Assembly (NCBI GenBank): GCA_046563655.1
Contig: CM102290.1
Location: forward strand, 6,572,001 to 6,636,000
Source of the DNA: Yuukianura sp. NJ FZ-2021
Taxonomy: Eukaryota
Direction: 5' to 3'
Length of the DNA stretch: 64,000 bases
The notes under the pieces are model-generated. The model was not told the DNA's origin. It did no database searches and was given only the letters and a program-made list of their open reading frames with translations. Shown in pieces: positions 9,556 to 57,781 of this stretch. Made by a program: the position numbers and the translations under genes. Within the stretch, counting starts at the first letter, position 1. Each line of letters opens with the position of its first letter.

Positions 9556-9561
9556 TTTACC

Positions 9562-16620: not shown

Positions 16621-16731
16621 GATTTTATACCCCGCACAAAACGTACAGACAACGACTTTTTATTCAAATCGAAAAGGGGAGACAGCGAAACGTTTACAAT
16701 TCAGAAATAGGCATGAATCATATAGTGACGA

Positions 16732-18278
16732 CTACCAATTTCCATAGTCAGCAGCAATCGTTTCCAACTCCTTCACCAGCAAGTCCTTGGCTTCCATGTT
16801 CTCACCAAACTTAAATGTGAACGACTTTCCCGCCAAAATCTGCCCTCCCCGGGTGCTTGCTGAACTCCCTCTTCCGTTTTCCATCACAACAAGAACCCCC
16901 AAAGCATCAGCTGCAGCCAAAATCCTGTTCCAGCATTCCTTGTCCTGCGAAAAGCTGAACCTTGTTTGCTGACAGACACCGGACAAAGAAATTTCTTGTA
17001 GGGCTGGAAGTCTCGGAACTAGTTCCAAGAACACAACATGGTCAACCCCGCAAGAAAAATCAATGTGACCTCCAAGGCGGTCCAAATGTAGTTTTCTCAA
17101 ATTTGGTAGAGATGCAATCGATCTTACAAGTTCCCCACGTAACACATTTGCGCCGACCAGAGAAAGTTTGTAAATGGACTTCGGATAATTCTGCTGACAC
17201 ACAGTTTTGTGGAACCCTTGAAATCTTCCGTGTCCAAAGAAGAATGGGCTGTGGCTGTGGGGAATAAACTCCAGACGCAATTCCGTCAAATTATTCAGTT
17301 CCTCCAACCCCTCAATCCTATATGGCGACCTCGCGTCCATCACCACGTTACTAACATCCAACTTGCGTAGGCTTTCTTTGCTATTCTTGATTATTACAGC
17401 TAGCCGTTGCATTGAAACTCCGTCTAGTTCCACCTTCAAGCATTCAAAAGCATTTGGCAAGTCCACCAACTTCCACCAAATACTAAAAAACGAGGACGGG
17501 AAAGCGTAGTGCGGAAGACAACTGATCTCCAAAACCCGCAACTTTGGCAACACCACGTTTGCCACAGGGCCGATCTCTCCAAACTCCATATTGCTCCGCG
17601 TACATGTTAGGTTCAAAACTTCCAACTTCTCATGATGCCTTTGGATGAATTCGAAGAAGCTGTGAACTGTGCCCGGCTTGAATTTGTGACACAAATGGAA
17701 CTCGGAAAGTTGTGCTAGTACAAAGTCGGGTTTTGAGCACAAAATTTCAAACAACCCGGGCTGTTGGTGCCTTCCGCCATTTCCGTTGGACAAGCAGGAG
17801 TCAATCTTGAGTATTTTCAAGTTCTGGAAGTGGCTCACCATTTGAGACGGCGTGAATTGGGCACAATTGATCTTTCCAATTGCACCAACGTGAAAAAAGT
17901 TCATCGCAGGAACAAAGTAATACGTCCGAATTGCGTTCCGCAGACCGCTCATTGAACAAGCGCCAGAAAATGTTACCTCCTGGACCAGGCTGCGAAACTT
18001 GATTGCAGGCAGCGCTGCGTCACGGTAGTTTTTCAGAACAAGATGCCTCACTTTCGACTCCTTCACATGCGGCGGGAGCCACTTGTTATAGCACACCAGC
18101 TTCCACAATCCCAACCTAAACCAAAAAAAAATCCTTCAAAAAAAAAGCTCAGAATCGCAACAGGAAGCGCCTTGGGATATGTGACGAACCTGTCAACGCG
18201 TTTTCTCCACTCGCGAGACACAAGCCGCATTTTACTCAGCTCATTATTATTCAAATACGACAGAACAAGGGCCAACAT
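16732..18278 (-). CDS. F-box / leucine-rich-repeat protein, 2 exons, about 490 aa
   Basis: Exon 18278-18190 (VLSYL..EL.KMRLVSREW..VD, F-box) splices through a 74-nt GT-AG intron in frame to 18115-16732, which has repeated LxxLxL motifs (LPKLRVLEI, LNNLTELRL, LPNLRKLHL). Confidence 0.85.
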
Positions 18279-19109
18279 CTAGTTAACAAAAAAATTCATT
18301 CATTTTTTCGTATATATATATCCTTCGCGGCTAAAGATTTTCCTGTTTGGGGAAACGTGAGAATCGCCCCCTTCCCCTCCTCGAAATTTCTCTGAAAAAA
18401 AACTGTCAACTCTTGCATTGCCCCGCATGATGTAACCAGTCTCACCATGCCCCACTTGACGTAAATCCAAAAACACTCGAATTCTCACATAACCCCGTAT
18501 GGTGGAGATTCTAAAACACCCAAATTCTCACATAACCCCGTATGATGTCAATCCTACAAAACCCTACCCAACAGCTCACCTCATTCGGAAGGCTTTCCAA
18601 CTTCGGGTCTTCCATTGCCCCAAATGTGTTATAATTTGTGCTTTTGCTGGTTTTCTAACAAGCGTGAGGTACTGTTACAAATGACAAAACAACTCAATTA
18701 TATACCCCAGCTCAAGGATAAAACAAACGTTTCCTCAACGTCCAAAGTCTAAAAAAATGACGTCACCTGATAACACAGTCTAACAAGATAGCAACGATAG
18801 ACGATGATGGGATGCGTCCAAACTTTGTCTTCTCACCAAAGTACCACCTAACCAGCTACTACGACGTGAAAGTCCAAGGTCATGGGCCACCTACCAAAAC
18901 TCCTGACGTGATTATGCTAGACTTTCACAGTTTGAATTTCGATGATATTCTATTCACATTTCTTAAAAAACAAAGTTTTTCTAACGCATTTTTATAGTAC
19001 AAACAGCAAACCCACAAAAACCGAAAAGTACAACGAAAAAAAAATTCAATTTATTTTTTTGCAAACAAAACAAAAATGTTGTTTTTTTTTTAAATAGTAA
19101 TTCAAGTAT

Positions 19110-20479
19110 TTAAAACCCAACTCGGGTAAGGCGCAATCGCATGTTGCGAGTTTCGCACATTGGACCAGCAGACCCCCCCCGCTTTTTTGGAGGGCGCCCC
19201 CTTGGGCGTTTTGGCGGGACTGGCTCCTCCGCCACTTCCACTTCAGCCACTTCCCGCTTCACGGCAACGTTAGCAAGCTCTTGTTTGAGTCGATTCAACT
19301 CCTCCACAGCTTCCCGTTTTGCCGTTTCAGCCGCAGACGCAACTACTTCGGCCACTTGCTGGTTGTCCTGGGCAATTTTAGTACGCTCACGAAGTTCGCG
19401 CACTTTCTCTTCAGACTCCTCAAGTTTCTTGTGAACAATGTCAAACCTTGCGGCATAAGACACTTGTTCCTCCTTGTGACGAATGTTCGCCATGTGCCAC
19501 CGCGCCTCGGATTCAACGAGTTTTTGGCTCAATTCCGCACAGCGGGATTCTGAGGCTGCTCCCCGCTTGTTCGATTCGTCAATTAATCTTAAGTTGTTCG
19601 CCATGATTTTGTCCCTAAACAAAAATTGAAATTACTAACTACACAGAGAAACACAAACAAAAACTTGACAAAAAAAATTGACAACATTGAAAGATTGTTA
19701 AACCAAAAAAAAACACTTACCACGCCGTAGTACGACAGTTCAGCTCCGTTTCTTTTTTGTTCAGTTCCGCCTGCAAGTTCATAATTGTTTTCGTTTTTTG
19801 ACAACTGCCGAACTCCAACTCCGCAACTCTTTGACCCCTGAAAAAAAAACGAATTAAAAAAATTTAATTTTCACACATAACTTAAAAAAACTACAAAACG
19901 CTTACAATGCGTATTGCACAGGCAAGGCAGCGATCCTGGCCTGCAGATCGATCACCGTGCTTTCGATGATCTGAATGCGATCACTAAAGATTTTTAAAGA
20001 AAAACAAAATTTTGTTTAACATTTTTCAATTAAAACGTAAAAGAAAAATTACCTATCGGAAGTCACCACCAAACCGGACCAGGCCATGCCACATTCCTGC
20101 ATGGACAGAAACAGCCTTCGCCCCTCCACTTTCTCCCCAGTGGTCTTGACCATGGCCTGACACACTGGACATGCCGTCCTCAAAGAAAAAGCACACAGTT
20201 AGCACAAGGTTTAACTTAACATATAAAGTAGTAAAAGTACTTACTCAACTGTGGCCGAATCTCCAAGGCATCCAGGATGGACAGAATTAGCCCAATTCAG
20301 CATGCAAATCCTAAAAACGCAAAGTTTTTAAATCCTGACCAAACACGTAAATCCTAAGAATCTGATACAAATACTTACCAGTGCAACACGTGGTTGCACT
20401 CAGTTGAGATGACGATGGCCTTCACGTCCATCGGCTCATGGTCCCCGAACTTGTCCAAACACACGGGACAAATAACCAT
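19110..20479 (-). CDS. RING-H2 + coiled-coil + AT-hook protein, 6 exons, about 330 aa
   Basis: Exons 20479-20379, 20310-20245, 20178-20053, 19983-19906, 19837-19721 and 19614-19110 give one open frame: CPVC...ECNHVLHWIC...CPVC, long coiled coil, KRPRGRPPKK. Confidence 0.88.
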
Positions 20480-20937
20480 GGTTTTTTCTTCTTTTTTTTT
20501 TACGACAGAGATTGACAGCACAAACTCAACTTACTTTCAAATTAACTTTCAACTTACAACAAACCTCTTTATATCTTACGAACGAGGCGGACTTAAAAAC
20601 CAAAGCATTTAGAAATTGTGCAACTAAACAAAATACTCCATCGGGGTCGAAGGTTGGAATCCTAACGCTCCAAACAATTGTCACAGTGTCACAAGGACAG
20701 AAACTACAAATTTCTGTCCACATCCCAAAAGCATGCCAAGGACGTCCAACACTCAAATTAACATCATGTTTTGTCATGTGAATGACTCAGTTTTCAGATA
20801 TCTGATTTCAACAACAAAATGTCGTCAAGAACTGGCACAGCAAACTTACGATCTGACTTAACTTAAAAACTTAACGATCTTAACTTAACCTTTTCGTGAG
20901 TCACCCCCACAGACCAAAAACGCGCGAACGAATCCAG

Positions 20938-21038
20938 AACGTTTGACCTCAACCTTGCGTTCTTCCTAACTGACTCAACTCCCTCCGCAAAACGAATCCG
21001 GAACGTTTTACGTTCTTCGCGGAACTTACCATTCTACT
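20938..21038 (-). repeat. Right TIR of Maverick 1
   Basis: Reverse complement of 3150-3250; ends ATTCTACT followed by TSD CATGTC. Confidence 0.97.
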
Positions 21039-21154: not shown

Positions 21155-24100
21155 AGCCACATCACACTCTTCTGCATATTAACAACGAATTTGTTCCTTT
21201 CACAAACCAGGTAACCAATTCTAATGCTCATTTGACTAATCCGTCTACTTCTGTTCCCACATCCAGTTGTAATCACAACTCCGGCCATGGGGTCCTACTT
21301 GGAACTGCAGAAGTCTACGTAATGGATGCTACTGGAGCCTACCAAACCTGCCGTGTCCTTTTCGATCCAGGAGCTGAGGTTTCCTTTAGCACCGATCGGT
21401 GCTGTCAGCGACTTGGTCTCTCACAGACAAAGTCCAACGTCGCCATCAACGGAGTTGGTGCCACAACAGTTGGTAAAGCAAAGGGAAAAACAATTTTGAA
21501 AATCAAATATATGTGTAATGATTTTACGTTGTCGGTGGAAGCTTTTGTTCTCTCCCAGGTCACAGGTCAACTGCCCTCATTTAGGTGTGGTGACACCTGG
21601 AAAGAATGGACCCACCTTCAGAATCTGACCTTGGCTGACCCCAGATACATTGACCCGAGGGAAGTTGACATTGTACTTGGGGCTGAGGTCACACACCGAA
21701 TTTTCACTGGTCAGACTCTTTCTTCTCGGGTTGATCAACCCGCTGCTTGTTCGAGCCACTTCGGTTGGGTGGTCATGGGACCTGTCCATACTCCACCAGT
21801 GCAGTCTTACACGGCCCACTGCCACACAGTCTCTCTGGATGGAGCCATTCAACGCTTGCGGGAACTCGATCACGTCCCAACTCGGATGCAGTTGACACAA
21901 GAGGAGAGTGACGCAGAGAACCACTTTACAACTCATCACTCTCGTACACAGGATGGAAGATACATTGTTCCACTTCCATTCAAACCCAACATTTCGGAAC
22001 TCGGATCATCACGATCAATTGCATTACGGAGACTCCACCACACTGAACGTCGGCTGGATCGACTCCCGCAACACAAAAGTGAGTACGTAAAATTCATGAA
22101 TGATTATCTCAATTTAGGTCACATGGAACAAGTCCCAGCATCGGAAGAAGGAGAACAATTCAAGATGGATCCATCCAGACGTAGTACCTCCCACATCACT
22201 TCGTTTTGAAGGAGGATAGTACAACAACCAAACTTCGTGTGGTGTTTGATGGTTCGTGTGAATCAAATTCAGGTTTGTCACTTAACAAGTGCCTAATGGT
22301 AGAACCAACTATTCAACCTGATTTATTTACACATCTAATCAAATTCCGATTGGATCCAATCGTTTTAAAGGCTGACATAACAAAAATGTATCGCCAGTTC
22401 TCAGTTTTAGAGTCAGACTCCAACTTCCAGCGGATCCTTTGGCGGCCAACTCCTGATCAGCCTATTCGGGAGTACAGGCTAAAAACAATCACTTATGGAA
22501 CCTCCTCGGCTCCATTCGGTGCCATTCTGGCCCTCAACCAACTTGCTCTGGACGAAGGAAATTACTTTCCCTTGGCCAGGCAAGCAATAATTGAGCGTTT
22601 TTATGTAGATGACTTTTTAGGTGGTGACTCATCAGTTCCAAAAGTGGTGGAAACTTACCACCAATTCACCAAACTACTCGCTCGTGGACAACTGTCAATA
22701 ACTAAGTGGACTTCAAACTCTCCGGAAGTCCTGCAGGAGATTCCTTCACACCTAGTGGAAATCTCCACTCAATCACTGGCGGAGGGATCAAGCACAAAGG
22801 CATTGGGCGTTCAGTGGACTCCAAATTCTTATCTTCTCCATTTCACTGGATTTAGGTTTAACCAAACCTCGGTAATAACAAAACGTACCATTTTAAGTGA
22901 CATCGCAAAGTTATTTGATCCACTGGCGCTACTCGCTCCATTCGTCGTGTCGGTAAAAGTTTTCTTCCAGAGTCTGTGGACCTTGGGAATTGGTTGGGAT
23001 GATAACCTGCCCGAGGACTTGGTAGAAAGGTGGTCCCACCTTGGCTCATCATTGTCATGTCTTAGTGACATTGCCATTCCATTACACCAAATTACCAACG
23101 AATGGAATTACATGGGTTTTCGGATGCCTCCGAAAGAGCCTATTGTGCCGTGGTCTACCTCAGGACATTTGATAACGATCTACCAATATCACGAATTCTC
23201 ACTTCCAAGACTAAAGTAGCTCCTGTCATAGCACAGAGCATTCCTAGGCTAGAACTTTGTGGTGCTTTGTTATTATCAAAACTAATTTCTTTCCTTTTGT
23301 CTAGTTTGGATCCAAACTGTCATGTCTACTGTTGGACTGACAATGAAATTACTTTGCGTTGGATCTCGTCTTCTTCTCGTCGCTGGGTCCCATTCGTGGC
23401 CAATTGGGTTTCGCAAATCCAAGAGCCCACACCAGTCGAATCTTGGCATTTCATTCCTGGGACACTCAACCCTGCCGATTGCGGAACAAGAGGGATCCCT
23501 CTTAATGAGCTTGTCGACAATCAGCTCTGGTGGAACGGACCGGAGTTTCTTTCACAACCACAATTACCTTCGTTCTCCAGTTCACAATCACTCTCATCTG
23601 AGCATCTGAAGGAAGAACGTAAGGTCAAGGTCCTAACTATTCAAGTGTCTTTTCCCATATTGAACAGGTATTCGTCATTTTTGCAACTCCTACGTGTCAT
23701 CGGGTCACTTCTCGGGTTTGTGCTGAGAGCTCAGCAGAAGTCGGCACCGACGTCACGCTCAGTCGAGTTCTACCGAATGGCCACTCGGAAGGTCATTCAA
23801 CTGTCACAACAGGAACACTTCCAAGAGGAGATCCAGTCTCTGACTGAAAACGGTAAAGTAAAACAATCCAGTTCGTTGCTCTCTCTTTCCCTATTTTTGG
23901 ATTCGGATGGATCTCTTCGTGTCGGTGGACGGCTCCACCTGGCATCGCTCCCAGAAGCTGCCAAACACCCTCTGATCATTCACGGAAAGTCTTCAGTCAC
24001 TAAACTACTTGTCCAGCATTACCACCACAAGCATCATCATGCTGGGAATCGTCTTCTGCTCTCACTTCTACGCCAAGATTATTGGATTGTCCACGCACGA

Positions 24101-25123
24101 GATTTGATCAAATCTGTCATCTCTCGCTGCCTCAGATGTAAGCTGTTGAGACAAAAGACGGCAACACAACTCATGGGTACACTGCCTCAACCAAGAGTCA
24201 CGATGTCACCTACGTTTCATCACACTGGTTTGGACTACGCTGGTCCATTTACACTCCAATCTGTCAAAGGACGAGGCCAAAAACAATTCAAGGGCTACTT
24301 CTGCATCTTCATCTGTCTCTCTACGGAAGCCGTTCACGTGGAGTTCGGAACCGAACTGTCGACCGAATCCTTCCTCGGCAGTTTCAAACAGTTTGTATCA
24401 CGTCGGGGTAACCCACTACATTTGTATTCTGATTGTGGTGCAAATTTTGTAGGTGCTAATAACGAGTTGATGGATTTGGTGAGCTCTCACCAGTTCAACT
24501 CGGAAGTTTCTTCTTACTTTGCAGAATCACAGACACATTGGCATTTCAATCCTCCGTCTGCTCCTCATCATGGTGGAATCTGGGAGGCAGCAGTACGTTC
24601 TGTCAAATTTCATTTGAAGAGGATCATTGGGACCACCACTTCAACGCTTGAGGAATTTGCAACAGTTCTTTGCCAAGCGGAGGCAGCGCTGAACTCCCGA
24701 CCTCTTCTACCGATGTCCAGTGACACGTCCGATTTAGGTGTGATCACACCGGGCCACTTCCTCGTCGGCAGACCTCTCCTCGCCGCTCTTCAACCAGATC
24801 ATGCTGATGTCAAGGTCAATCGCCTCTCACGTTGGCTGTTGCAGGAGAAGCTATTCCAAACGTTCTGGAAGGTCTGGTCACTCGAATACCTCACATCCCT
24901 TCAACAACGAGTAAAGTGGACCAAGAAAACCAACAACTTGACAATCGGAGATCTCGTGGCCATCAAAGATGACAATTTACCCCCTCTAAAGTGGAAACTG
25001 GCTCGCGTCATCAACGTTCATCCTGGTCCAGACGGACTAGTCAGAGTCGTCACTCTTCGTACGGCCCTCGGAGAACTCCAACGCCCTGTAGCGTCTCGGA
25101 CCGCTACTATCCCCAAAATATGA
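21155..25123 (+). mobile_element. Degenerate BEL/Pao LTR retrotransposon pol region (end of gag, protease, RT, RNase H, integrase), 5'-truncated and frameshifted
   Basis: HHTLLH (end of gag knuckle), LFDPGAEVSF, TTKLRVVFDGS, YVDD, LHGFSDAS, IPRLELCGA, DYAGP, SDCGANF, GGIWEAAV. Split into three ORFs by frameshifts near 22200 and 23090. Confidence 0.93.
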
Positions 25124-37012: not shown

Positions 37013-38408
37013 GATCAACAATTTGAAATTTTTGAGAAGAGTTTGTTCTTCTAGAATAAACCTTGAGACCTAACCTTGAATCGTCGTTTCTAACTGCTTT
37101 GGCACAGACATCGGAATTGGTCATCTACAATCCAGGCTACATTCTTTGTTCTCCTGTAACAAGGTGCAGTAACATGTTTTTCCTACTTCAAGGAGAACTG
37201 ATTGTCCGCAGCAAGACAAATATGCAGCACATTTCCGCACTTCGTCCTGCTGGTTGTATAATTGGAGAGATTAACCTCCTCTTCTCAATTCCATATGACC
37301 ATCAAATCGAAACTAAAGTAAGTTTTATGCTTTTATGCTTCAATATTATGAAAAAAATAACCAACGTTACTCAAATTTGATAAATTCTAAAATCAATCAA
37401 TTAGTTTATTTGACTTTGGCAATTGCCTTACCAAGTTACATTTTGTTTCGAGAGGGGATCTAATCGTATTCAGTAGTATGTAAGGTAAAAGTAATTTAAA
37501 ATATTAGCCTTGAGAACTCAGAATTTCAAGTGTATGAGGGTCAATCAAGAGTAGAAGTAGATATTTTGTGTAATCGGTTGTCTTTAGCTTCCGGTTGAAC
37601 CAAGGTTTCTATAGCAACGGAATAGTTGTTGCTTCATAAGGTTAAGCAATACCTCGGTTTTTATATTTTTCCTTCCAAAATTGCAAAAATGAAAAAACAT
37701 CAGGGCAAGACATTCACTCTGATTCACTCTGGGTGAAGCGTGGGTGAAAAAAAAAGTTTGGAGCGAGATTTTTGGAAAACAAGACTTAGGTAGGTTAGGG
37801 TGCATTCGCATTTAGACAAAAAAAGAAACTTCGTTTAACTTAGAAGGAGAGTCGGAAGGTGGCACATGTAATTTTAGGGAGAGAATTGGAATTTCAGATA
37901 CTTTAAACTAATGAGAATTAAGGAGAATTAAGGTATCAGAGAGCTGTTCCTCCAGGACGCGGCGGCTGGTGTACCGGGTGCACGTGGACGGGTTCTAGGT
38001 TCGTTTTGTCTTGCTTCACGTTTCTTCTGTCTATCCATTCTAGTTTCAGCGGTGAGGTATTCGGTTATGGAGTAGATTTCTTTTTGGTTAATGAGTGTTT
38101 TTCTAAGTTGAAGGGCTTGCATTCTGAAAGAGTAGGTCGGGAACCGCACTTTGATTGGCCGAGGCTTGTTAGACGAGTTTGGTTTTCCTAATCGGTACGC
38201 ATCTTCTATGTTCACCCGAACTTTGTAGTTCTTAAAGAATTCATTTGCGACACTAACATAACCTAACCTATAAATTCTAAAAAAAATGTAATTTTTCTGT
38301 ATTTTCAGTATGTCTGTCTGTCAAGCACTGATGATTAGCAGCGAATCGCTTTTTCAACTACTGGAACTTTTTCCGCATCTTGTGCAAGTTCTTCGAGAAA
38401 AGTTTGGG
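37013..38408 (+). pseudogene. Cyclic-nucleotide-binding-domain gene fragment (CNG/HCN-like)
   Basis: SFLTALAQ..ELVIYNPG...MFFLLQGEL...GCIIGEINLLF, and a later exon CQALMISSESLFQLLELFP. The next exon is hit by element 2. Confidence 0.65.
37928..38215 (-). mobile_element. LINE ORF1-like (RRM/CTD) fragment in an intron
   Basis: IEDAYRLGK...PRPIKVRF...ITEYLT...R pattern. Confidence 0.6.
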
Positions 38409-38466
38409 GTGAGAACATTCTTACTTGCGAAGTTCTCCAATTTCAATGGACTTTTTTCAAAGTGTC

Positions 38467-38543
38467 AGTAGTAGCCTAGAAGGGACTTTCACGCCAAATC
38501 GACCTTTGGACCCATAAGGTTTAAAACCACTGGCGTGAGATCC
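38467..38543 (+). repeat. Left TIR of element 2
   Basis: Reverse complement of 48850-48926 with one mismatch. Confidence 0.97.
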
Positions 38544-39041
38544 AAGTAGGACAAATCCTGAAGGACAAATTAAGGACAAATTAGTTAAGACTAATTGACG
38601 CTTCCTGTCACCGAGTTAATTAGCACTTCCTGTTGGCTTTAACCTACACAAAATCCCTTAATTGGTAATTTCCGATCTCGGACTTAATTTTTGGTGTTAA
38701 GCCACAATTTTCGAAATCCCGCCAAAAATTTTGTACATAAACCTTCGAGCCAAATTTCAAAAAAAAAAAAAAAAAAAATTAGTGAATATTAATTAATTAA
38801 ACACTTCATGTTGGCAAGATGCTTCCTAATGCCCTGACAGCCTTGTTCTAGTTTTACCTTTAACACCATCGACTCAAATCAACCTTTGCCCCCAATGTGT
38901 GTACAGGATGAGTTAACTCACAACTTTACAACATTGTTCACAACATCTAACAAAGAACCAATAACACAAAAAGAAAGGACTAGTCACAAAATTGTTCTAA
39001 TCATTTTTTATTTCAAATTTTTATTAACATTTGTAAATCCA

Positions 39042-39740
39042 TTATACAGGAGTATTTTTGGTTAGCACACCATGAAATATGATGCTGTCAATTACATCAG
39101 CACTGTACGGCTTCATTCGAAGTTCCTCATGCGTAGAATACATGCTACGTGTAGAACTCTCCATAACAAAGGTTCTTCGACGGATCTGAAATTGTTGGTG
39201 CTTTGTCAAATCCAGCAAATGGGTGGTATACAGTTCTCGAATGTGTTGATTTGTTTGTGGACAGCAGCAATTAGGACGATCGAAAACACTTCCATGGTTT
39301 TCTTTATTTCGACACTTATTCAAAGCCAATTCGCGTAGATCCTTCAAGTAGCTTCGCTTTGCTTCATGGATAACTCTATCCAAAGATTCGTCCAAATACG
39401 AAGTTGGAAATGATTTTAGAAGTCTCCCAACCAAATGCGGAATTTGATCCAATTTTATATAAGCAGCGCCACACGCTCGAATTAGGAATACTTGATCATC
39501 TTGTCTTATGAAATGAATATCCGCTTCTCCGAATTTCTGAATTGAATCTACCTGACTCGCCTTCTTACGATTTTGAGCCAGAATTTTTTCAAAATACGGT
39601 AGGCCAGCCATCATTTTTCCCGCCCCAATGTATACAACGACTAACTTCTCAACCACCGTCGTCAGTTCCTTCTCAGCAAAAGTAATGGAAAAAGATGAAT
39701 TTCTGACTTCAATACCGGATGAGGACGAAAGTACTTCCAT
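39042..39740 (-). CDS. Orphan protein A (232 aa, C...NCCC motif), paralog of 40119-42698
   Basis: Intact ORF sharing ELxTVVExLV, LPxFxKxLxQNR, IHFI, LDxIPxLV, FPxxYLxESLDxxIHExKRxY, NCCC and LDxTKHQQ with the split paralog. Confidence 0.85.
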   Translation of the reverse strand: MEVLSSSSGIEVRNSSFSITFAEKELTTVVEKLVVVYIGAGKMMAGLPYFEKILAQNRKKASQVDSIQKFGEADIHFIRQDDQVFLIRACGAAYIKLDQIPHLVGRLLKSFPTSYLDESLDRVIHEAKRSYLKDLRELALNKCRNKENHGSVFDRPNCCCPQTNQHIRELYTTHLLDLTKHQQFQIRRRTFVMESSTRSMYSTHEELRMKPYSADVIDSIIFHGVLTKNTPV

Positions 39741-40267
39741 GTTGAACTAATTTAAACTGATCGTCTAAAACAGCCGTTCAGAGTTCCTTCTTCTCAGGAC
39801 TAGACGAGACTAAGTAAAACCAGTTAAGACTTCCAGTTAAGCACTAATTGGGACTAATTGATTTTCTTTTTTGTCCGTTAGCACTGGGTGGAGCTACCCC
39901 CGACAAATCCTTGGGATTGCCTCTTGTACAAAAACGTTTTTGTACAAATACCCTTTTAATGAACATGTGATTAGAGGGAATTTAATGCCATCCACATTCA
40001 GCGCAGCACCCAGTGGTACCTATACAGTTCAGACATCATCAGTTTTACTATTGTCCTAAATTTGTTACTATTGTCCTAAAGTTTACAGTTGCTTTTACAT
40101 ATTTGCAGCATACCAAGGATGGACGTAAACCTGCCGGAAGTCTATCTAAGCAAGGGTCTTATTGCCGTCAAGAATTCTGGAAATTCAATTATGTTTTTAT
40201 CCGAGGAGCTACAAACCGTTGTAGAAGAACTAGTCAAAGCATATATTGAAGAAGGGAGGATGATTAA

Positions 40268-42164
40268 CTCCCTACCTCACCATACTTCCAGACTGCATTC
40301 CGGCGAAAACAAACTGACAGTTGTCACCCAGAACGATTTCGGCAAAAACGTCCATATTTTTTAAATTAAAATATTAAAAAAAAAAAAAAATTTTTTTGAA
40401 AATTTTTACTCCGACGTCATTTCATGTCGCAAGTGAAAATTCACGTCGCGAATTTTCGCGTCGCGCGAGGCGACGCGAATTTTCACAGAAAATGCAAATT
40501 TGATGCTCAGTCGCTACTACGGCGACACCCACAGCGATGGGACGCAATTTCCCGTCGCGCGTGAAATTTCACGTCGCGAATGGCGACATCCGCGAATTTT
40601 CGCGTCGCGCGAGGCGACGCGAATTTTCACAGAAAAAACAAATTTGATGCTCAGTCGCTACTACGGCGACACCCACAGCGATGGGACGCGATTTCCGGTC
40701 GCGCGTGAAATTTCACGTCGCGAATGGCGACATCCGCGAATTTTCGCGTCGCGCGAGGCGACGCGAATTTTCACAGAAAATGCAAATTTGATGCTCAGTT
40801 GCACTACGGCGACACTCACAGCGATGGGACGCGATTTCCGGTCGCGCGTGAAATTTCACGTCGCGAATAGCGACATCTGCGAAATAGGTCAAAAACTAAA
40901 AACCGATGTCGGCAGGTGTTATGCGTGACAACGGAATTGTCCTAAGCCGTTTCCAGACTCACGCGAAATTTCACGTCGCGTACGCCGCGAGTCGTGAATT
41001 TTCGCGTCGCGCCTGGCGACGCGAATTTGGTAGAAAATTGCCCATTTGTTACTCAGCTGTACTCACGGCGACACCAACAAGGATGCGACGCCATTTTCGG
41101 TCGCACGTGAAATTTACGTCGTTGTACGTCGCGAACGGTGATATCAGCGTTTTTTACGAAAATGCGCATTTGATGCTAGACACGTTCAGAGCGTACCTGT
41201 GGTATTGTGAAGCCATGCTTCACTGACGCGAATTTTTGCGTCGCGGATGGCTACGCGAATTTTCCCTTTCGCGACGCAAAATTTCGCGTACGACCGGAAA
41301 TGGCGTCGCATTTCTGTTGGTGTCGCCTTCAGTACAGCTGAGTAACAAAAAGGCAATTTTCTGTAAAAATTCGCGTGTCGCCAGGCGCGACGCGAAAATT
41401 CACGACTCGCGGCGTACGCGACGTGAAATTTCGCGTACGACTGGAAACGGCTTAGGATCAATTCCGTTGCCACGCATAACACCTGCCGACATCGGTTTTT
41501 AGTTTTTGACCTATTTCGCAGATGTCGCTATTCGCGACGTGAAATTTCACGCGCGACCGGAAATCGCGTCCCATCGCTGTGAATGTCGCCGTAGTGCAAC
41601 TGAGCATCAAATTTGCATTTTCTGTGAAAATTCGCGTCGCCTCGCCCGACGCGAAAATTCGCGGATGTCGCCTTTCGCGACGTGAAATTTCACGTGCGAC
41701 CGAATATGGCGTCATCCTATAGTTGTCGTGCGCATAAAATCTGTTCGTCGATTTGCCTTTTAGCACATGGCCAAGGGTGGCGCAATTCGCGACGTGGAAT
41801 TTTCACGTTCAATACGTTTGTGCAAAAAATTCAAAATCGTTTGAAAAACGTAATTTAGGGTGTTTTCATCATTTTCCAATTTTTGAAAAAAATTGGTTCA
41901 GAATTTCAAAAATTTTATACCGCTGTAAGAATTGAGTTTCTTTGTCAGAAAAGCTCAAATCCAGCCCAAAAACAGCAATTTTCACTTCAAGAAATCCCGA
42001 AAAATTGAAATTTGTCGAAAAAAATCAAAAAACGTTTGAAAAACGTAATTTAGGGTGTTTTCGTGAAATTTCAATTTTTTGAAAAAAATTGGTTCAGAAT
42101 TTCAAAAATTGTATGTAGGGAGAAAATCGTGGGTGATAATTGTCATCATGATTGGCAGTGTTGT
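40268..42164 (+). mobile_element. Non-coding insertion with Helentron/Helitron2-like ends and a large internal palindrome
   Basis: CTCCCTAC at 40268 with its inverse GTAGGGAG at 42115-42122, hairpin 42125-42153, ATTAA at both junctions; internal 144-bp repeats and about 420-bp inverted arms. Confidence 0.55.
40434..41701. repeat. CpG-rich 144-bp tandem units arranged as a long inverted repeat
   Basis: Unit marker TGATGCTCAG at 40501, 40645 and 40789; about 40696-41115 is the reverse complement of about 41279-41701. Confidence 0.92.
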
Positions 42165-42765
42165 ATTAAGCATCTTCCACATTTTGGGAAGCTGTTATTG
42201 CAGAACCGTAATAATGCAGCAAAGCAAAATGAATACTCGCCGGATGAACCACTACTCCCGATTCATTTTATCAAGGACGCATCAGCTCGTGTCATCCTTA
42301 TCCGAAGCGGCGCGCCTGTTATGATCGATTTGGACCATATTCCCCAGCTGGTTGAGTCACTTCTAAAATGTGGATGTTTTCCTATTACATATTTGGAGGA
42401 ATCTTTGGACATGCTGATTCATGAAACTAAACGCGGCTACATCGAGAAACTCCGCAATGAGGCGTTCCGATCCTGTCACAACAAATTGGAAATTGATCCT
42501 TGCAGGAGCATTTTTGGCGAGTTCAACTGTTGCTGCACAGCAACTAATACATCAAACTACAGTCAACATGTATTGGACGTTACTAAACACCAGCAAATGG
42601 AAATTAACAGATGGAAATGGGGAATAGATAGTTTCTATGGTAAGAGAGAACTTGCTGTACTTGAGAGTATTCGACTAAGAAATATTCCACTGACTTAATC
42701 TGGAAAATTACATTTCATGGCAAAAGAGATTGCTAAACGGTCTTTATTCAAGTCAAATAAAATTA

Positions 42766-43530
42766 TCAATTATTTCTGTACACAGTACATCCAACATCGG
42801 GAAATATATTATTGCGGATTCTAAACCTATCATCCTGGGATTGGTGTAGGTCGATAAATACATGACCATACTGTTTTTTCATAACGTCGTCATAGCATGT
42901 TTCCAAAGCTTCGTTCCGTTTTCCGTTTTTTGTTAGCTGACGTCCAAAGCAGAGAACTTGAGAGACTTCTCGAGGATTTTTGGTGAAACAAACATACTGG
43001 CAATTTGTAGTTATCGTTCGTTGTCCTTTCTCGAAGAAGCTTTGGGTAACGAAAATTATGCTCACATTCCTGTGATGACTCGTTCGAGTAAATGCAGAGA
43101 CGATATCCTTACTAGCACAAACTTCATGCATAAGATCGTCAAGTACGACGATTCGATGAGTGTTGTAGGGGCTCGCAAAATCGTCTGGTAATCCGTAGTG
43201 AAATTTAATTGTTGGGATGTGACTTTTCAGATCCTGAAAAAATTCAATCTCTGGCTCCCCATAACAATACAGGATATCATTAATCGGAACATCCACCATT
43301 TCAAAACGTCGAAGGAGTAATTCCTTAAGAACCGTCGACTTTCCACTTTGGCTTGCTCCGCTAATTGTCATGCAGAATGGCGCCTTTAGCCTATAATCAA
43401 AACACTCATCACGTTCCGCCATGGTACGATGTTCCGCTGTAGTTTCATCGGTTTGCTTATGTGCAGTGTATACATGGCGTTTAAGGTTATCCGAACGTGT
43501 GAACGTACTGTTGCAAACACTACAATCCAT
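42766..43530 (-). CDS. Maverick-type packaging ATPase with an N-terminal C2H2 zinc finger (254 aa)
   Basis: CSVCNSTFTRSDNLKRHVYTAH, then GASQSGKS, VVLDD, SHHRNVSIIFVTQ and KNPRE; clearly homologous to 8896-9555. Confidence 0.92.
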   Translation of the reverse strand: MDCSVCNSTFTRSDNLKRHVYTAHKQTDETTAEHRTMAERDECFDYRLKAPFCMTISGASQSGKSTVLKELLLRRFEMVDVPINDILYCYGEPEIEFFQDLKSHIPTIKFHYGLPDDFASPYNTHRIVVLDDLMHEVCASKDIVSAFTRTSHHRNVSIIFVTQSFFEKGQRTITTNCQYVCFTKNPREVSQVLCFGRQLTKNGKRNEALETCYDDVMKKQYGHVFIDLHQSQDDRFRIRNNIFPDVGCTVYRNN

Positions 43531-43558
43531 GCTGTTGTGAATACTGAAACACAAATGC

Positions 43559-43760
43559 TTTATATACACCACCACCACCAGTCTTGCTAGGAGGAGGAGG
43601 AGGAGGAGGAGGAGGAGGAGGAGTAGGAGGAGGAGGAGGAGGAGGAGGAGGAGGAGGAGGAGGAGGAGGAGAGGAGGAGAGGAGGAGGAGGAGGAGGAGG
43701 TACCACCACCACCACCACCACCACTATAAAACTGTTGCAATCGGATAAAAATGTTCAGTT
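43559..43760. promoter_or_regulatory. Bidirectional promoter: two outward-facing TATA boxes bracketing (CAC)n-(GAG)n-(CAC)n arrays
   Basis: TATATAAA on minus (43566-43559); TATAAAA on plus (43725-43731) with TCAGTT initiator about 30 nt downstream; GAG tract 43589-43700; CAC tracts 43567-43580 and 43702-43724. Confidence 0.7.
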
Positions 43761-43773
43761 GCATTTGTACATC

Positions 43774-44223
43774 ATGCCTGTTTACTGTGACATTTGTTCC
43801 AAGTCATTTTCCCGCGCAGACGCATTAAATCGACATAATCGCGTTGCTCATTCAGACGAAGCTATGGATTCAGACTCAGAAACGGAAACTGAAGCAGAAA
43901 CGGAAACTGAAGAAGAAGAAGAAGAAGATGACTCTAAGTCACATTGTGGCATGAGTAAATCCAGCTTATCGTTAATCCTTCATGCACTACAAAATGCGGA
44001 TATTGGAGTTCAACGGCTGACTTTGGACAGCTTACGCAAGCTTGTGGAAGGCGCAGACGATTCTGATTCTGATTCAGATGATGATGATGATGATGAATCA
44101 TCCGACAAGTTGGATTCAAGTCAATTAGATTATTTAATAGCCGTTGTAAAAGCCGGAATAAGAAATGTTATCAATATTAACACAGCAGAATTTTTAAAAA
44201 TGCTGAATAAAATGATTTTATAA
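43774..44223 (+). CDS. C2H2 zinc finger + duplicated acidic/helical module protein (149 aa)
   Basis: CDICSKSFSRADALNRHNRVAH followed by two D/E/S tracts, each preceding a similar amphipathic helical segment. Confidence 0.85.
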   Translation: MPVYCDICSKSFSRADALNRHNRVAHSDEAMDSDSETETEAETETEEEEEEDDSKSHCGMSKSSLSLILHALQNADIGVQRLTLDSLRKLVEGADDSDSDSDDDDDDESSDKLDSSQLDYLIAVVKAGIRNVININTAEFLKMLNKMIL

Positions 44224-44290
44224 ACTTTTATTGTTTTCAGCTTGGACTAATCACCTAAAATCTGTATTTTTTCACACATGTCAAAATAAA

Positions 44291-47200
44291 TTATTGAGAA
44301 ATATCTCTATGTCCAAATGCTAAAGTGTTAATTCTATCAACACCATATCGTTTGGTATCTAAACCGTTCAGAGCCCTTTTTAACGTTACTTCTGTGAAAA
44401 TTCTATGTTCCACACTTCTAAATCCTCTCATCCATACACGAGTTTGAACATCTTCCTTGAGGACTTTCTCAAAATCTTCATATGCTATTTGGTTGTTGAC
44501 AGCTGTTTTAGTTATTCCTTTGACTTTCTTCGTGCATTCGTCTTTGATGAACCAGCTGCCGTCAGTCTTCTTTTGGTAAATATTTTTCCCATCAAATCCT
44601 TTGCAGACTTGAAGTTTCAAGGATCTAATGGTGTACATTTTTGGACGAGGACAAACGACGTGAGTGACTACCGAACCGGCAGCTTCATCTTTGAATTTTC
44701 CCAAAACTTTCTTGTTGGTGGGGTCGTGAAACTCTCCAAAGATGGGGTGATCGGGTTCATATTCGCTCATGTCATACAAGTCCTTGTCATGGAGCATGTC
44801 TTGGTATACATCGTCAGTTTGGATGTGATAGATGAAGGAATCTGAAATAAAAAGTTAGCTTTAGTTTAAAGTTAAATTATTGAATAGTATAACATTTACC
44901 TGTGTCAGTATAAATAAGGCGACACTTCTCGACGCCGTATTTCGCCTGTATAGTGTAGTGATGTCGATACATGATGCTCTTTGCCAGTTCAAGCACTGTT
45001 ACCCCCGTAAATATCGGTTTGTTCAAAGTAACTTGAAGTCTCTTCATCATAAAGATGCATGTTGACTCGTTAATTGGGATGACATTCTGGACGGTGGGTT
45101 TCTTGTTGTAACGTAGAGCTTCTTCCATTGATGTAACGATACGAACATTCTGACGCTTGCGTACTTGCTCAATGGTTTTACCAAACGCAGAGTTGTTGAG
45201 GAGTTTCCAATAATCCTTTTCAAAGTCTGACTTTGCCTTTTTTCTCATTTCGGTGTTAAAGTCGATAAAGTCCTTCATCCATGGTCTCTGCTTGAAGGAA
45301 ATTCCGCGGTGAAGTTTTGTAACTTTAACTCCAAGCTTCAGGTACTCCATCAAAATGGCGTGATGTAGAATATAGTTTTTCTTATTGTTTAGATCTGCCA
45401 CAAGTTTCTTAACTTTGAAAATTCCAGGACCTGTGTCGAGTTTTTCCGTCAATTGTATTTGGTGACTGGACAGCTCGCTCTGTGCAACTGTACGGTTAAC
45501 TGGAGCTGGAGGAAAATCATTCAGCTTGTCATGCAATAAAGGGTCAATTTCCAAATCGACTTCAACCATGTATCCTTTTTCATCGTTCATGATAAAATGG
45601 TTTTCTTGAAGTTTCATCAACTCCTCTTCTGTTAGCCAGCGAAATTGTCCAGTTGGAAGCGGAAGACTCATGCTTTTGCCCTAGTGAAAAACGTTAGATA
45701 ATAATTTTTCATGGACGTTGGATACCAAAATGTTGAATACTCACATATAAGTTATTGGCATCGATGTAGAGGAGGTAACTGGATTCCTTTTCTGGATTGT
45801 ATTCATCTCCCATGTACTTGTTGTTTGCTCTTGCCTCTCGCATTGATCCGACGCTAACGTATCCACCTATAAATAAAATGAATCAGAAAATGTCTTCCAA
45901 TTGGTTAAGTTTATAGGTTTTACCTCTAATAGCATGCTCCAGCCAGCAATGCATGGTTGGATCCGTGATTAGCTCCAATTCGACTCCTGATTTCTTGAGA
46001 ACGCAGTCCATCGCCATTATAGGTAACGAGAAATAATGGGCCAGGTCCAATTCGTAAGCATCAAACATTATTTTTCGGATTCCTTCCATCACATCAGCCA
46101 GAAGCGATACATCTAGCCTGACGTACAAGTCATGCCAATCTCCCATGTCTTGAATGTTGAAGCTTTTCCAGACTTTCTGAGCGTGTTGATAAGCGGCATT
46201 ATCAATGTGTGATTCCGCCAAGTCATTGTAGAAATCTTCTTTTGGTGGTAGATTTTTGATTTTGAAATCCTTGCAAGACTTCATGAGGGAATAAGGGTAA
46301 ACACCCTTTTCGAAGAGAAGTTCAATGTCATCGTGTTGTGCAAACTCTTGTCTTGTGATTGGAAATTTTGCATTGGGATCAGCTCGCATCACTTTGACAA
46401 GTTTGTCTAATGATTTCAATGTAAATCCAAGACTGTCTGTAAACCTCAGCTTGAAGGGTTTCTTCTGCCAGCGAGGTGGTTCTTCGTCCTCATCGAAATC
46501 ATCGTGGTACGCAGGAACAATGCTCAGCGACATGTATTTTTCACTGCTCTTAGGGATAACAGTGATGTCCTTGATGATTCCGTCTTGTCTGAGCTTTCCA
46601 GCCGATTGCACAATGAAGTGAACATCATATGATGAGAAGTTATGCATAAAGACGGGAAACTCCTATTTGATTTGCGCTTGGAGGTTACAGTCTTGGTGAG
46701 CCATCCCGATGTAGTTGAACGGTGGAAGATGTGAATGGTGTCGTACTTTAGTTCCATCCAATGGCTTCTTGCAGAAACAACAATGTTTTTCAATGGCAGC
46801 AGCACTTCTTTGCGTTGGAGTCAGATTTAACATGTCTGGAGCAATTTTTTCGTAGTACCGAACTTCCTCTTCCAGTGTTTTGGAGTACTCAGTTATGCTC
46901 TGAATGAATTTGGCGGCAACGTCTTCATCATCGTTGGTGATATGATAATATTCACCATGTCGTCGTTTTCCATTGAAGTCCACGCAAACCCATGCATATC
47001 CACACGGCTTGTGTAGGTGAGTGCAACACTTATTTACAGGTTGAACTGGTCTTCCACGTATCTCTTCTTTGAGTTGTCGGCGCTCTTCCTCTTCTATAGT
47101 TGATGGATTAAACTTTGGGAGGAATGCTTCAAAGTCTGCGTAGAACCGAAATGGAACTGGCTGAGTTCTGGCCCAGTTGTTGAAAGTCAATTTGTTGTCA

Positions 47201-48555
47201 GTAGGATACACAACTTTTTGAAGATCTAAGGAAGCGCAATACTGGATGTGGTCCTGAAGAGTGTGAGCTGATTGAAAATTGGAGAGGCAGTTGCGACAAA
47301 TATGCTTCACTTTGTGATCATTCGGGGCTCTCATTAAAGCTTCAAGGTTTCGAATCAGGATGAAGTGTGCGTTGTTTCCTTGCATTAGACACATCAAGTC
47401 GACATGTATGTCTTTCGACTGTTGAGAATTGTACAGTAATGAAATCTTGCTTTGTATAAAATTGAATGATTCAATTTTGCTCAGCTTCTGTAAAATCATG
47501 TCATCACCATCCATGTCATAACCAAGAACGGTTATAGAAATGTTCGGGTTGAGTTCTTCAAAGTGAGGGATCTGCTCCAAAGTCATCGGAAAATGGAGTC
47601 CTTTAGTGTTCAACTTGTATTCATGTGGCTGGTATGTTTTCACTAGCTTGTCAATACGGCACCTATGATTGTTTCCACCAGCTGGAATGCCACCGATTTT
47701 GTCATGAGCGAGCACTGACCAGATGAAGCATTTGTTGTGGGAATCGTCCATTGACACTTTGCTGTTGTTGATGTTAAGAAGAACTTTTTGAGTCGATAGT
47801 GGGTATGGGGTATCCATGTATGTACCAATCTTGGTGAATTGATACTTTGAAGTGACAAATCCAAATTTCAAAATGGAATCCAGAGTCCAGCCGCTTCCTT
47901 CATTTGTGAAGTCTTCAATTTGATCTGACATTTGGTTGCACATGATTGACCAAACTTTAGGTAGCATGTTTGCATTGAAGACAAGGTGTCGATATGATGT
48001 GAATCCAGCATCTTTTGATTCAACTGTTCCATCTGCGTGTGTCTTTATGAAGTGACACCCCAAGGTAAAAAATATCCTTAGGTTCTTCCATCTGGAGATG
48101 TCTTCTTGGATGACTTCATATGATGATTGCTTCACATTTGCGAAAAAATCTCTCTCGTCGACACCTTCACCGCATTGAAATGCATCATGTTCTGCCAAAT
48201 ACTTCCGACTCATTTTCAGAGATTCCAACACTAGTTTTACAGTTATTAGATCTGTTGACACTCCTCCGCCATCTTGAATGTTGAAGTCTGGGTGAGTTGT
48301 GTAGAAATGTTCTTGAAGTTTATTCCGGCAATTAAATGAAAGTCCACAAGTATAGCAAAACAAATGGCGATATTCTTGTAGAATACTCTCGTTTGTGACA
48401 TCGTAACCTGGTGGAGCTGGTTCAAGACAGTTTTTATGGACTGTGTCAAAATGTAGTTTTAATAATGGTCGAGAGGTAAATCCATGAGCGCACAGTATGC
48501 AGTTAAAGAGTTTCTTGGATGGACCAACAATTGATGTTCCTTGGCGCTTCGACAT
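44291..48555 (-). CDS. polB: Protein-primed family B DNA polymerase, 4 exons, about 1361 codons, one in-frame TAG (46665-46663)
   Basis: Exons 48555-45924, 45866-45745, 45680-44900 and 44841-44291 splice in frame, restoring IRGG, YIDANNLYG and YTDTDS. Also YADFE, HNFSSYD, KLLNNSAFGK and two N-terminal C2H2 fingers. Confidence 0.94.
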
Positions 48556-48849
48556 TATGACAATAGCAAGTGTTTAGGACAATAAGAATCTTAGGACAAC
48601 TGAATATTTGAGGAGTTTTTCAGAGACTGAAAGTCTCCGAAAAAGTTGGTGGTATTATATCTCTAGTCAGAGCCGACCCCCTAAGCTGACCCCCTAAAAG
48701 AGTGGGTGAAGGTTTAGCCTTTTTCCTTCCTTTGTGTTAATTAGTTTTGGAAGTCTTAATTGGTCTTGAACGGAAGTGTTAATTAGTCTTAATTAATGTT
48801 CATGCTGGTCCCAGGAAGTCTTAATTAGTCTTAATTAATCTGACTTGTA

Positions 48850-48926
48850 GGATCTCACGCCAGTGGTTTTAAACCTTATGGGTCCAAAGGTCGATTTGGC
48901 GTGAAAGTCCCCTCTAGGCTACTACT
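48850..48926 (-). repeat. Right TIR of element 2
   Basis: Ends CTACTACT followed by TSD GTGTC. Confidence 0.97.
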
Positions 48927-49394
48927 GTGTCTCGTTTTGGAGTTACCGATTAACCGAAAAACTATCAAGAGACTACGAGTTTATTGGCACGTATCCGTTC
49001 CAGTATGCTGTGCGTAAAAAGGACCGGCAGTCCAAAAATCCAAGATACACTATGAGAAGGTTTGTCCCGATTTTTTGTTTCTGAAATATCTTCGGTATAT
49101 CAAAACATATTCGACATTTTTTTACTTTTTGTTGCAGAAAAGTCTTCATTCAAACAAGACGAGACGATGTTAGTGATGACTCTGCCAATACTTACATTAT
49201 GACCATGCCTACCTATGCTGGAGAACACACCAGAGTAAACAAACTTTTTAAAAACGATTTAGTTGAGTAATTAATTGATTTAGTGTTTGATTATCGTCCT
49301 TGTAGGATTATACTCGGACATACCGCTCATGTCGTCATGTCCTGTACCGATCATCCTGGCAAATTTTTCAAAATGTGAATTTTTTAAACTTACC

Positions 49395-57136: not shown

Positions 57137-57781
57137 TCACTTTTTTCCCCAGTTTCGCTTGGGAACTTTTTGCCACATTCCATATTGTGGCTTGGGTCTG
57201 ACTCCTGAGAGACTGCGGAGGAATTGCTCTGGAATTGGTGTTCTAGCGGTCGGTTCAAACCGGAAGTTGAGCACCGCCGCGGCGATTGCTACTTTTTCCT
57301 CGACCAATGCAAAGTGACTGACAGTACATGCGCGTTGACCAATCCCGAACGGGAGGTAGTGAGCTGGATGGCGATTGGCTCTTTCTTCGGCGGAAAATCG
57401 TTCCGGAATGAATCGGTTTGGCTCGGCATAGATGTCCGGATCATAGTGGATTGGCATCACAGGAATTATAATTCCGGTTCCCTTGACAATATTTAAGTCG
57501 GTTTTGGGCAGATTGTAGTCCATGGTACACCTTCTGGTTAACCGAAATGCTGGCGGGTACTTTCTCAAAGTTTCTGTAAAAAATATAATAATATATAATA
57601 TAATATAATATATAAAATCAAAGGTTACCTGACACCACCATATCCACATACGGTAGAGATGATAAGGTTTCATAATTCGGAGATTTTGCAACTCCGATTT
57701 CTGTCCAGCAGAATCCAACTCTTCAAATAATTTTTGCTGAACTTCAGGATTAACTGCCAGTTCGTACAAACAGAAATCCAG
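57137..57781 (-). pseudogene. Cytochrome P450 C-terminal fragment (CYP3-clan-like)
   Basis: YELAVNPEVQQKL, ETLRKYPP, PERF and heme motif FGIGQRAC; frameshift before the intron and no N-terminal half. Confidence 0.85.

Follow-up and report, generated by a model that had tools for sequence, protein, structure and literature searches.

A single-finger packaging ATPase and the triplet array that its finger is predicted to read in a Maverick/Polinton-type element

We know of no account of the means by which Mavericks/Polintons recognise their own DNA, be it for packaging or regulation, and to our knowledge their virions have never been seen. A locus in Yuukianura sp. NJ FZ-2021 raises this question. 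Within a 64,000-nucleotide stretch of contig CM102290.1 (positions 6,572,001 to 6,636,000 of the forward strand; hereafter the window), a virus-like element bounded by terminal inverted repeats (TIRs), element B, carries a gene for a packaging ATPase with one C2H2 zinc finger at its N terminus (P0001) and, pointing away from it, a gene for a second single-finger protein (P0002). Between the two genes lies a (GAG)n microsatellite flanked by (CAC)n blocks. A preliminary description of this DNA had drawn attention to the divergent pair and to its recognition helices (positions -1 to +6), RSDNLKR in P0001 and RADALNR in P0002, both of which were confirmed by direct reading. Do these fingers read the repeats between their genes? 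We conclude that the ATPase finger more likely than not reads the array. More tentatively, we propose that the array may be a multivalent landing pad for that finger, most likely serving promoter autoregulation and possibly packaging.

The clustering of CAC and GAG motifs in the spacer exceeds chance. The two start codons are 243 bp apart (43531-43773), and the intervening DNA runs, in order, from a minus-strand TATATAAA box through (CAC)4, a 10-nt spacer, a 112-bp (GAG)38 array and (CAC)7 to a TATAAAA box (Table 1), an arrangement that the preliminary description had given correctly apart from the distance, which it put at 244 bp. The GAG array lies 58 nt before the ATPase ATG and is the sole period-3 row among the 19 that Tandem Repeats Finder returned for the window. 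Sequence CACCACCACCAC, with at most one mismatch, matches 8 times in the window, 7 of them within the two CAC flanks (0.13 expected), and none of 100 shuffles reached 8. Runs of at least four CAC units occur nowhere else in the 64 kb. Similarly, GAGGAGGAG has 33 matches in the window, 28 of them inside the array, with 0.23 expected.

Walker motifs (A, GASQSGKS; B, IVVLDD), a family profile (Pfam Pox_A32, 30.2 bits against a cut-off of 22.8) and a modelled fold together identify P0001 as a viral packaging ATPase of the A32/FtsK-HerA type. Its AlphaFold2 model has a mean pLDDT of 81.5 with a confident ATPase core, and its fold is matched best by the STIV and STIV2 B204 packaging ATPases (first, 4r2h; E = 5.4e-07, TM 0.58 on the target). 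From the family we assume a ring oligomer and ATP-driven DNA translocation. The protein begins MDCSVCNSTFTRSDNLKRHVYTAH, which contains a C-X2-C-X12-H-X4-H finger; in the model, residues 1-20 (pLDDT about 90) form a hairpin and a helix from residue 13, and linker residues 31-40 fall below 50, consistent with a single classical finger tied to the motor by a flexible linker. Both P0001 and P0002 have classical C2H2 spacing, and they score 23.5 bits, just under the cut-off of 25.2, and 25.9 bits, respectively, with Pfam zf-C2H2. The Pfam scan gave no PF02456 match for P0001; some of its homologues carry a precomputed Pfam label for that family (Adeno_IVa2).

The helix-to-triplet code invoked in the preliminary description, in which RSDNLxR reads GAG and RSDALxR reads GTG, agrees with printed engineered modules. 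Table 2 of PMC3607563 lists RSDNLAR for GAG, RSDALTR for GTG and TSGSLVR, with serine at +3 and a middle T, for GTT, and the GAG module of Zinc Finger Tools printed in PMC5260015 is RSDNLVR. The P0001 helix differs from the printed GAG modules at +5 only, as does RSDNLQR of a relative described below; RSDALKR of another relative likewise differs from RSDALTR only at +5. On this code, RSDNLKR is predicted to read GAG and RADALNR to read GTG. Arg -1 and Arg +6 would contact the G's of a G-N-G triplet and the +3 residue would select the middle base, asparagine specifying A, such that (GAG)38 would present dozens of contiguous sites between the two TATA boxes. Whereas engineered proteins are covalent arrays of at least three fingers, P0001 and P0002 have one finger per polypeptide and could become multivalent only through oligomers and DNA repeats.

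The finger recurs across a protein family. A first search returned mostly fingerless relatives of 200-220 aa and four with a finger; a profile of 15 finger-bearing sequences then retrieved 2,740 database proteins at E ≤ 1e-10. About half of the retrieved relatives that have a Walker A motif (84 of 164) bear an N-terminal finger, including entries that NCBI names as Oculina patagonica and Mytilus species. Among 63 distinct fingers, 50 have R at -1, 47 have D at +2 and 60 have R at +6, while position +3 varies (N in 29, A in 16, S in 10, V in 4, E in 2 and D in 2). The family therefore seems to keep the residues for the outer G's and to vary the residue for the middle base, the pattern expected of a G-N-G reader with shifting specificity.

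The preliminary description had suggested asking whether array triplets co-vary with helix residues across homologous elements, and in the small set of loci recovered here they do. A single metagenome scan supplied 80 loci of 291 relatives, and prokaryote assemblies together with contaminated metagenome-assembled genomes (MAGs) added 41. Two IMG/VR scans with different ATPase alignments yielded no relative and one fingerless locus without arrays (L087), respectively, and nothing but fingerless or degenerate loci came from MAGs scanned by family (122 genomes) or by order (401 genomes). Fifteen sources bear a finger (the window, L009, L010, L011, L026, L027, L029, L052, L053, L056, L058, L078, L089, L092 and L102), about 12 of them with usable upstream DNA. 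Six of these roughly 12 loci have an upstream triplet array, and all six arrays fit their helix, among relatives at 30-50% protein identity.

Besides the (GAG)38 of the window (RSDNLKR), L053 (RSDNLQR) has about 390 bp of GAG-rich blocks ending 66 nt before the ATG, and L027 (RIDNLQR) has (GGA)8.7 between its polymerase and ATPase genes, with its near end 57 nt from the ATG, and (GAG)5 downstream of the stop codon. In L009 (RSDALKR), (GTG)n lies 648 nt before the ATG at the contig edge. L089 (RHDSLKR), from a separate collection, has GTG/GCG/GGG triplets, that is (GNG)n, which abut a TATA box and are cut by the contig end. The arrays of L058 (WLDSLKR) are (GTH)n and end 111 nt before the ATG. 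Of their 63 and 26 triplets, respectively, 59 and 25 start with G and 53 and 24 have T as the second base; none has G as the third. The same promoter-plus-array module, starting caacagagaaaATGtac, precedes a BIR-domain gene as well as the ATPase gene of L058 (199-390 and 1000-1078).

For a uniform count, we scored perfect triplet runs of at least 20 nt in the 1 kb upstream of the ATG at the 65 of 79 loci with at least 150 bp there (9 with a finger, 56 fingerless). Runs of any class were present at 5 of 9 finger loci and 6 of 56 fingerless loci (p = 0.005). GAG-class runs occurred at three of the nine finger loci, all of the RxDNLxR type and comprising every RxDNLxR locus with upstream DNA (3 of 3), and GTG-class runs at two of the nine; each class was found at 0 of 56 fingerless loci. 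When the window was excluded, the non-matching RTFNLNR was counted as a miss and near-duplicates were removed, the GAG association stood at 2 of 3 versus 0 of 50 (Fisher, p = 0.002).

These results bear on the possibility that the pairing is a coincidence, in which case the arrays would be neutral promoter microsatellites and the finger a generic C2H2 domain that grips DNA non-specifically, directs the ATPase to the nucleus or contacts other proteins. Against this stand the restriction of GAG- and GTG-class arrays to finger loci, the fit of all six upstream arrays, including that of L089 from its separate collection, the conservation of R-1, D+2 and R+6 across a family at about 30% identity, and the confinement of CAC runs to the spacer. 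We consider coincidence doubtful, though it is an account to be weighed in earnest, because a number of observations count against a finger that reads its own repeats. Helices of the RxDNLxR type, near the general C2H2 consensus, outnumber every other type in the family (14 of 46 distinct helices), and no finger is seen in L001 and L002, the nearest relatives at 73% and 60% identity. An upstream triplet array is missing from about half of the finger loci with context: from L029 (RPDALKR), where the spacer measures 35 bp, from L052 (RRDAMLR) across 1 kb, from L092 (RKDVMLR, a pseudogene) across 1.5 kb and from L011, and also from the little upstream DNA available for L010 and L056. Helices kept without their arrays, which the preliminary description had named as the finding that would speak against it, are thus seen in L029, L052 and L092, while other loci retain the pairing. 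L026 (RTFNLNR) has a 9-mer array instead, with GGAG once per unit. The (GTG)n of L009 lies beyond the segment shared with L026, which bears another finger, and so may not belong to the cassette. The L058 arrays are also readable as short Tyr/Asn/Ser/Asp-rich open reading frames (ORFs) starting with ATG.

The statistics and the ATPase gene itself add to these reservations. When array classes are shuffled within the finger loci only, p is about 0.02, or 0.05 without the window (hand arithmetic); the sample is small, and both the 20-nt threshold and the class-level matching were fixed after the data had been seen. Since element B is decaying, neutral expansion could recently have produced its 38-copy array. 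The P0001 finger starts at residue 3 and the linker that follows, KQTDETTAEHRTMAERDE, is acidic, leaving it without the basic flanks of the GAGA type. The ATPase TATA box is just 34-36 nt from the first ATG and fingerless relatives begin at the position of Met37; the finger-bearing start might therefore be skipped, and translation may often begin at Met37. Transcriptomic run X19 matched only a (GAA)n tract, in a set of runs (X5-X20) that contain only 0.05 of the sampled words. Elsewhere in this genome, copies of the element have a different sequence immediately before the ATPase ATG.

Arrays within coding sequence were considered as further sites. The (CCA)n poly-proline tracts of L052 and L056 (RRDAMLR) and the (GCA)n of L102 (WPADLKR) fit the code. 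They were not counted because L082, a relative of L056 at 91% nucleotide identity whose finger is off the contig, encodes the same poly-proline linker with CCG where L056 uses CCA, a difference that itself favours coincidence.

Two further observations concern upstream regions. The L092 locus (1100-1620) is on a mussel-symbiont MAG contig, apparently host contamination, and has a broken finger-ATPase; about 130 bp upstream is a divergent single-finger gene (KKSLLLK) with no repeat array between, showing that the arrangement of two divergent finger genes recurs without a microsatellite. Immediately before the ATPase gene of fingerless loci, tandem repeats of other periods are frequent (L016-18, L030, L047, L048, L042 and L038/39), namely an 11-mer repeated 12.5 times, a 27-mer, a 28-mer, 22-mers, (ATT)16 and (GAC)9.

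Comparison of closely related loci suggests how fingers and arrays change. L053 and L058 share 90% nucleotide identity from about codon 44 to the contig end and are unalignable upstream, through finger, linker, promoter and arrays. For L009 and L026 the identity is 93% and sets in at about codon 92, and the promoters of L056 and L102 are 100% identical over 94 nt, after which come different fingers (RRDAMLR and WPADLKR) and linker arrays. Similarity breaks off sharply at the finger-linker module, which suggests that co-occurring elements exchange their 5' cassettes by recombination. As L052, L053 and L058 come from one sample and have three different helices and differing arrays, a repeat bias of the host is not enough to account for the pattern. 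Physical linkage accounts for the joint change of finger and repeat but leaves the code match of each pair unexplained. Finger and array may travel and diversify jointly as a specificity cassette, and the recurrence of the same finger-repeat pairing in distant relatives suggests a built-in self-recognition address.

What would such reading achieve? The preliminary description had offered a packaging signal or an autoregulatory switch. The array abuts the TATA boxes and is far from the element ends, with some 5 kb between it and either TIR; this position speaks for promoter control rather than for a packaging signal. We regard the earlier interpretation as partly supported, through the co-variation that it had proposed to look for, on a small sample and with real misses. 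In the window, L027, L053 and L089, the arrays abut a TATA-like box or start codon or lie 8-70 nt from one. Given that the finger reads the array, these promoter-proximal positions favour feedback control of the divergent promoter shared by the ATPase gene and P0002 as the first consequence. A lone finger would bind weakly; an ATPase oligomer could hold on by avidity. The analysis establishes the anatomy of the locus, the predicted folds of ATPase and finger, the conserved DNA-contact residues, the association of helix with array and the exchange of cassettes; binding itself, oligomer avidity, the direction of regulation and the part played by P0002 are what we infer.

There is a precedent for avidity of this kind. 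According to PMC2175371, the Drosophila GAGA factor (Trithorax-like) has a single C2H2 finger, forms oligomers through its POZ domain, binds cooperatively to GA-rich arrays and represses its own promoter. It differs from P0001 in requiring basic regions flanking the finger, which P0001 does not have, in oligomerising through BTB/POZ rather than an ATPase domain, and in being a host transcription factor rather than the motor of a mobile element. The GAGA factor site, GA-rich and of the form GAGAG, also differs from the GAG triplets that P0001 is predicted to read.

A further alternative is that host factors or DNA structure are at work and that the fingers of the element are irrelevant. A purine/pyrimidine array placed exactly between two outward-facing TATA boxes, as here, could keep a bidirectional promoter open by being nucleosome-poor or triplex-prone or by serving as a site for a host GA/GGA factor, and host factors binding GA-rich promoter arrays are well known from the GAGA factor work just cited. 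This account leaves unexplained why the repeat class shifts with the helix (GAG, GTG, GNG, GTH) and why fingerless relatives lack such arrays, and (GTG)n and (GTH)n are not purine/pyrimidine tracts. We regard it as improbable.

Promoter control and a packaging address are the main competing functions and are not mutually exclusive. PMC5033970 describes adenovirus IVa2 as a packaging ATPase that binds repeated motifs and a promoter element, activating the promoter, with a bipartite DNA-binding domain, repeats of the form 5'-TTTG-N8-CG-3' near the left genome end and a requirement for L4-22K. IVa2 and P0001 are packaging ATPases of one viral lineage, and IVa2 binds short repeats of its own genome and acts at a promoter (the downstream element of the major late promoter), as is proposed here for P0001. 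It has no C2H2 finger, whereas that of P0001 is classical, and its A-repeats lie near a genome end, whereas the repeats of element B are pure triplets in mid-element at the ATPase promoter. In capsid-bearing relatives, the array could likewise mark element DNA for its own ATPase.

That packaging is the only function, with the finger selecting element DNA for encapsidation, the array acting as a packaging signal and any promoter effect incidental, appears unlikely to us. P0001 does belong to the packaging ATPases by profile and fold, IVa2 sets the example of binding repeated packaging-domain motifs (PMC5033970), and the swapping of cassettes between near-identical elements would suit a self/non-self address. 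The helix-fitting arrays of L052, L056 and L102 are inside the gene rather than at its promoter, and fingerless ATPase genes, too, have tandem repeats of other periods upstream (L016-18, L030, L047 and L048). The distance of the window array from either TIR, set against the terminal position of the adenovirus signal, the abutment of arrays on TATA boxes at four loci and the lack of a recognisable capsid gene in element B all argue the other way. This copy of element B cannot package anything itself, because no capsid gene was found and its polymerase is broken.

P0002 may take part in the proposed feedback control of the divergent promoter. The protein begins MPVYCDICSKSFSRADALNRHNRVAH, and the codons of its RADALNR helix are at 43813-43833. 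Its finger and acidic tracts suggest the layout of a minimal activator, and the code, together with the position of the CAC/GTG blocks beside both TATA boxes, would pair its GTG-predicted helix with those blocks. No homologue was found in the first 80 metagenome loci or, at near lengths (695 candidates), in a collection of 5.8 billion proteins, and the Atlas gave generic small C2H2 clusters only. A single-sequence AlphaFold2 model was poor (pLDDT 46.6), usable for an outline of secondary structure only. Two organisms have DNA contigs covering the P0002 region, among them a variant with a 9-nt in-frame gap.

Table 1. Features of the locus, of elements A and B, and of the surrounding host DNA (window positions)
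Feature	Position	Strand	Remarks
P0001, A32/B204-type packaging ATPase with N-terminal single C2H2 finger	42766-43530	minus	254 aa; frame intact
P0001, whole finger	43459-43524	minus	
P0001, recognition helix RSDNLKR codons	43477-43497	minus	residues 12-18
TATATAAA box of ATPase gene	43559-43566	minus	34-36 nt before ATPase ATG
(CAC)4 block	43567-43580		reads (GTG)4 on ATPase coding strand; abuts ATPase TATA box
(GAG/AGG)38 array	43589-43700	plus (purine strand)	antisense to ATPase; period 3, 38.0 copies, 94% match (Tandem Repeats Finder)
(ACC/CAC)7 block	43702-43724		abuts P0002 TATA box
TATAAAA box of P0002 gene	43725-43731	plus	43 nt before P0002 ATG
P0002, orphan protein	43774-44223	plus	149 aa; one C2H2 finger, two acidic tracts, predicted helices
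Element B	38466-48927		10.5 kb, TIR-bounded; houses the finger-ATPase and P0002 locus
Element B, left TIR	38466-38543		78 nt; starts CAGTAGTAGCC; 99% complementary to 48850-48927
Element B, right TIR	48850-48927		78 nt; TIRs 10.3 kb apart
Element B, protein-primed polymerase, broken	44291-48555	minus	Pfam DNA_pol_B_2, 30.4 bits
Element B, orphan ORF	39042-39740	minus	232 aa; no Pfam family
Element B, orphan paralogue	42063-42698	plus	~211 aa; 43% identical to the 39042-39740 ORF
Element B, 144-bp tandem repeats and 255-nt inverted repeats	40447-41713		between the two orphan paralogues
Element A, complete-looking Maverick/Polinton	3150-21038		101-nt TIRs, 99% complementarity
Element A, BIR+RING (IAP-like) gene	3633-4328		
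Element A, ATPase	8896-9555		fingerless
Element A, rve integrase	10072-11034	minus	
Element A, tandem repeat	12606-12825		24/48/72-bp
Element A, adenovirus-type protease	15546-16070		
Pao/BEL-type LTR-retrotransposon pol fragment	21322-25123		Peptidase_A17, integrase zinc domain, DUF5641; host-genome context
Cytochrome P450 exon	57137-57673		host-genome context

The window is animal DNA, with a P450 exon, a Pao-type retrotransposon and a pair of virus-like elements. Of these, element A carries every gene of the Maverick/Polinton set: polymerase (an ORF of 1236 aa with an endonuclease VII match), fingerless ATPase, rve integrase, protease and BIR-RING gene. Its ATPase is an ordinary member of the group, sharing with P0001 the ATPase family and a polymerase-then-ATPase gene order; it has neither a finger nor an upstream triplet array, and the 58-bp spacer after the polymerase ORF holds no repeat.

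Element B is a reduced, decaying derivative of the Maverick/Polinton type rather than a full member of the family, because its polymerase is broken and no homologue of the element A integrase, capsid or protease is detectable; the TIRs and a polymerase gene of the family are present. The polymerase matches that of element A (tblastn, E = 8e-84) and is interrupted by two in-frame stops (46663-46665 and 45883-45885) and two frame changes (within 45578-45739 and 44845-44901). A tblastn search of 38400-49000 for the integrase of element A gave nothing better than E = 1.4, and no ORF scanned had a Pfam rve match. The element A candidates for capsid proteins and protease (the 262-aa and 266-aa ORFs and the protease) had no match below E = 0.03 in element B, in searches that did not extend to distant capsid folds. 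No target-site duplication was clearly definable in the flanks inspected.

The N-terminal part of the element B polymerase (46663-48555, minus strand) has three C2H2-like fingers (SRPLLKL, CRNKLQE and SAHTLQD), and fingers such as RKDALKR, RHDNWKR and RKDAWRR occur 3-4.5 kb upstream of the ATPase in long relatives (L032, L036, L042 and L049), indicating that finger fusions are not limited to the ATPase. The two orphan paralogues (39042-42698) form a second divergent gene pair, pointing away from the repeat block between them; neither they nor the polymerase pieces gave a meaningful Pfam match at E ≤ 1. Element B is multicopy, with contigs in three DNA runs from two organisms. At 43549-43557, contigs of other copies from two organisms diverge or hold about 30 extra letters between the ATPase ATG and TATA box, so the 5' leader is variable among copies. 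The array region (43581-43733) was skipped as a repeat in this comparison, and no short-read contig spans the array.

The genomic setting also bears on a last alternative, that the finger tethers the ATPase or a pre-integration complex to host microsatellites and that the internal array is a by-product. The L009 array, at a contig edge and outside the variable cassette, could be flanking DNA of this sort. The flanks of element B are not microsatellites, the arrays of the window and L027 are internal, between polymerase and ATPase genes, and we know of no role of a Maverick/Polinton ATPase in integration. Targeting of host DNA therefore strikes us as very improbable.

Reading of its own array by the ATPase finger remains our preferred account of the locus. 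C2H2 readers and DNA-binding packaging ATPases are both known; their pairing here occurs in a large and apparently undescribed protein family. Full-text literature searches found no publication on a finger-ATPase fusion or on the triplet arrays. A broader proposal, which we put forward as speculation and think unlikely to hold in full, is that packaging ATPases of Mavericks/Polintons of marine and soil invertebrates are programmable one-finger readers, whose +3 residue and microsatellite address co-evolve and are exchanged as a cassette. Each lineage would then have a private self-recognition code for packaging, promoter control or both, resembling immunity or incompatibility, by which capsid-less elements such as B, with ATPase, finger, array and TIRs retained, could be recognised beside complete helpers such as element A.

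If the finger does read the array, the finger-ATPase and the repeat of its own element would be a concrete, testable cis/trans pair, and one of the few natural settings where the textbook C2H2 code is legible at the level of a single finger and a single triplet. In this role, microsatellites would act as multivalent sites, with a code that diversifies between closely related elements, and the family of 2,740 database proteins is large enough for a genome-wide test of this idea.

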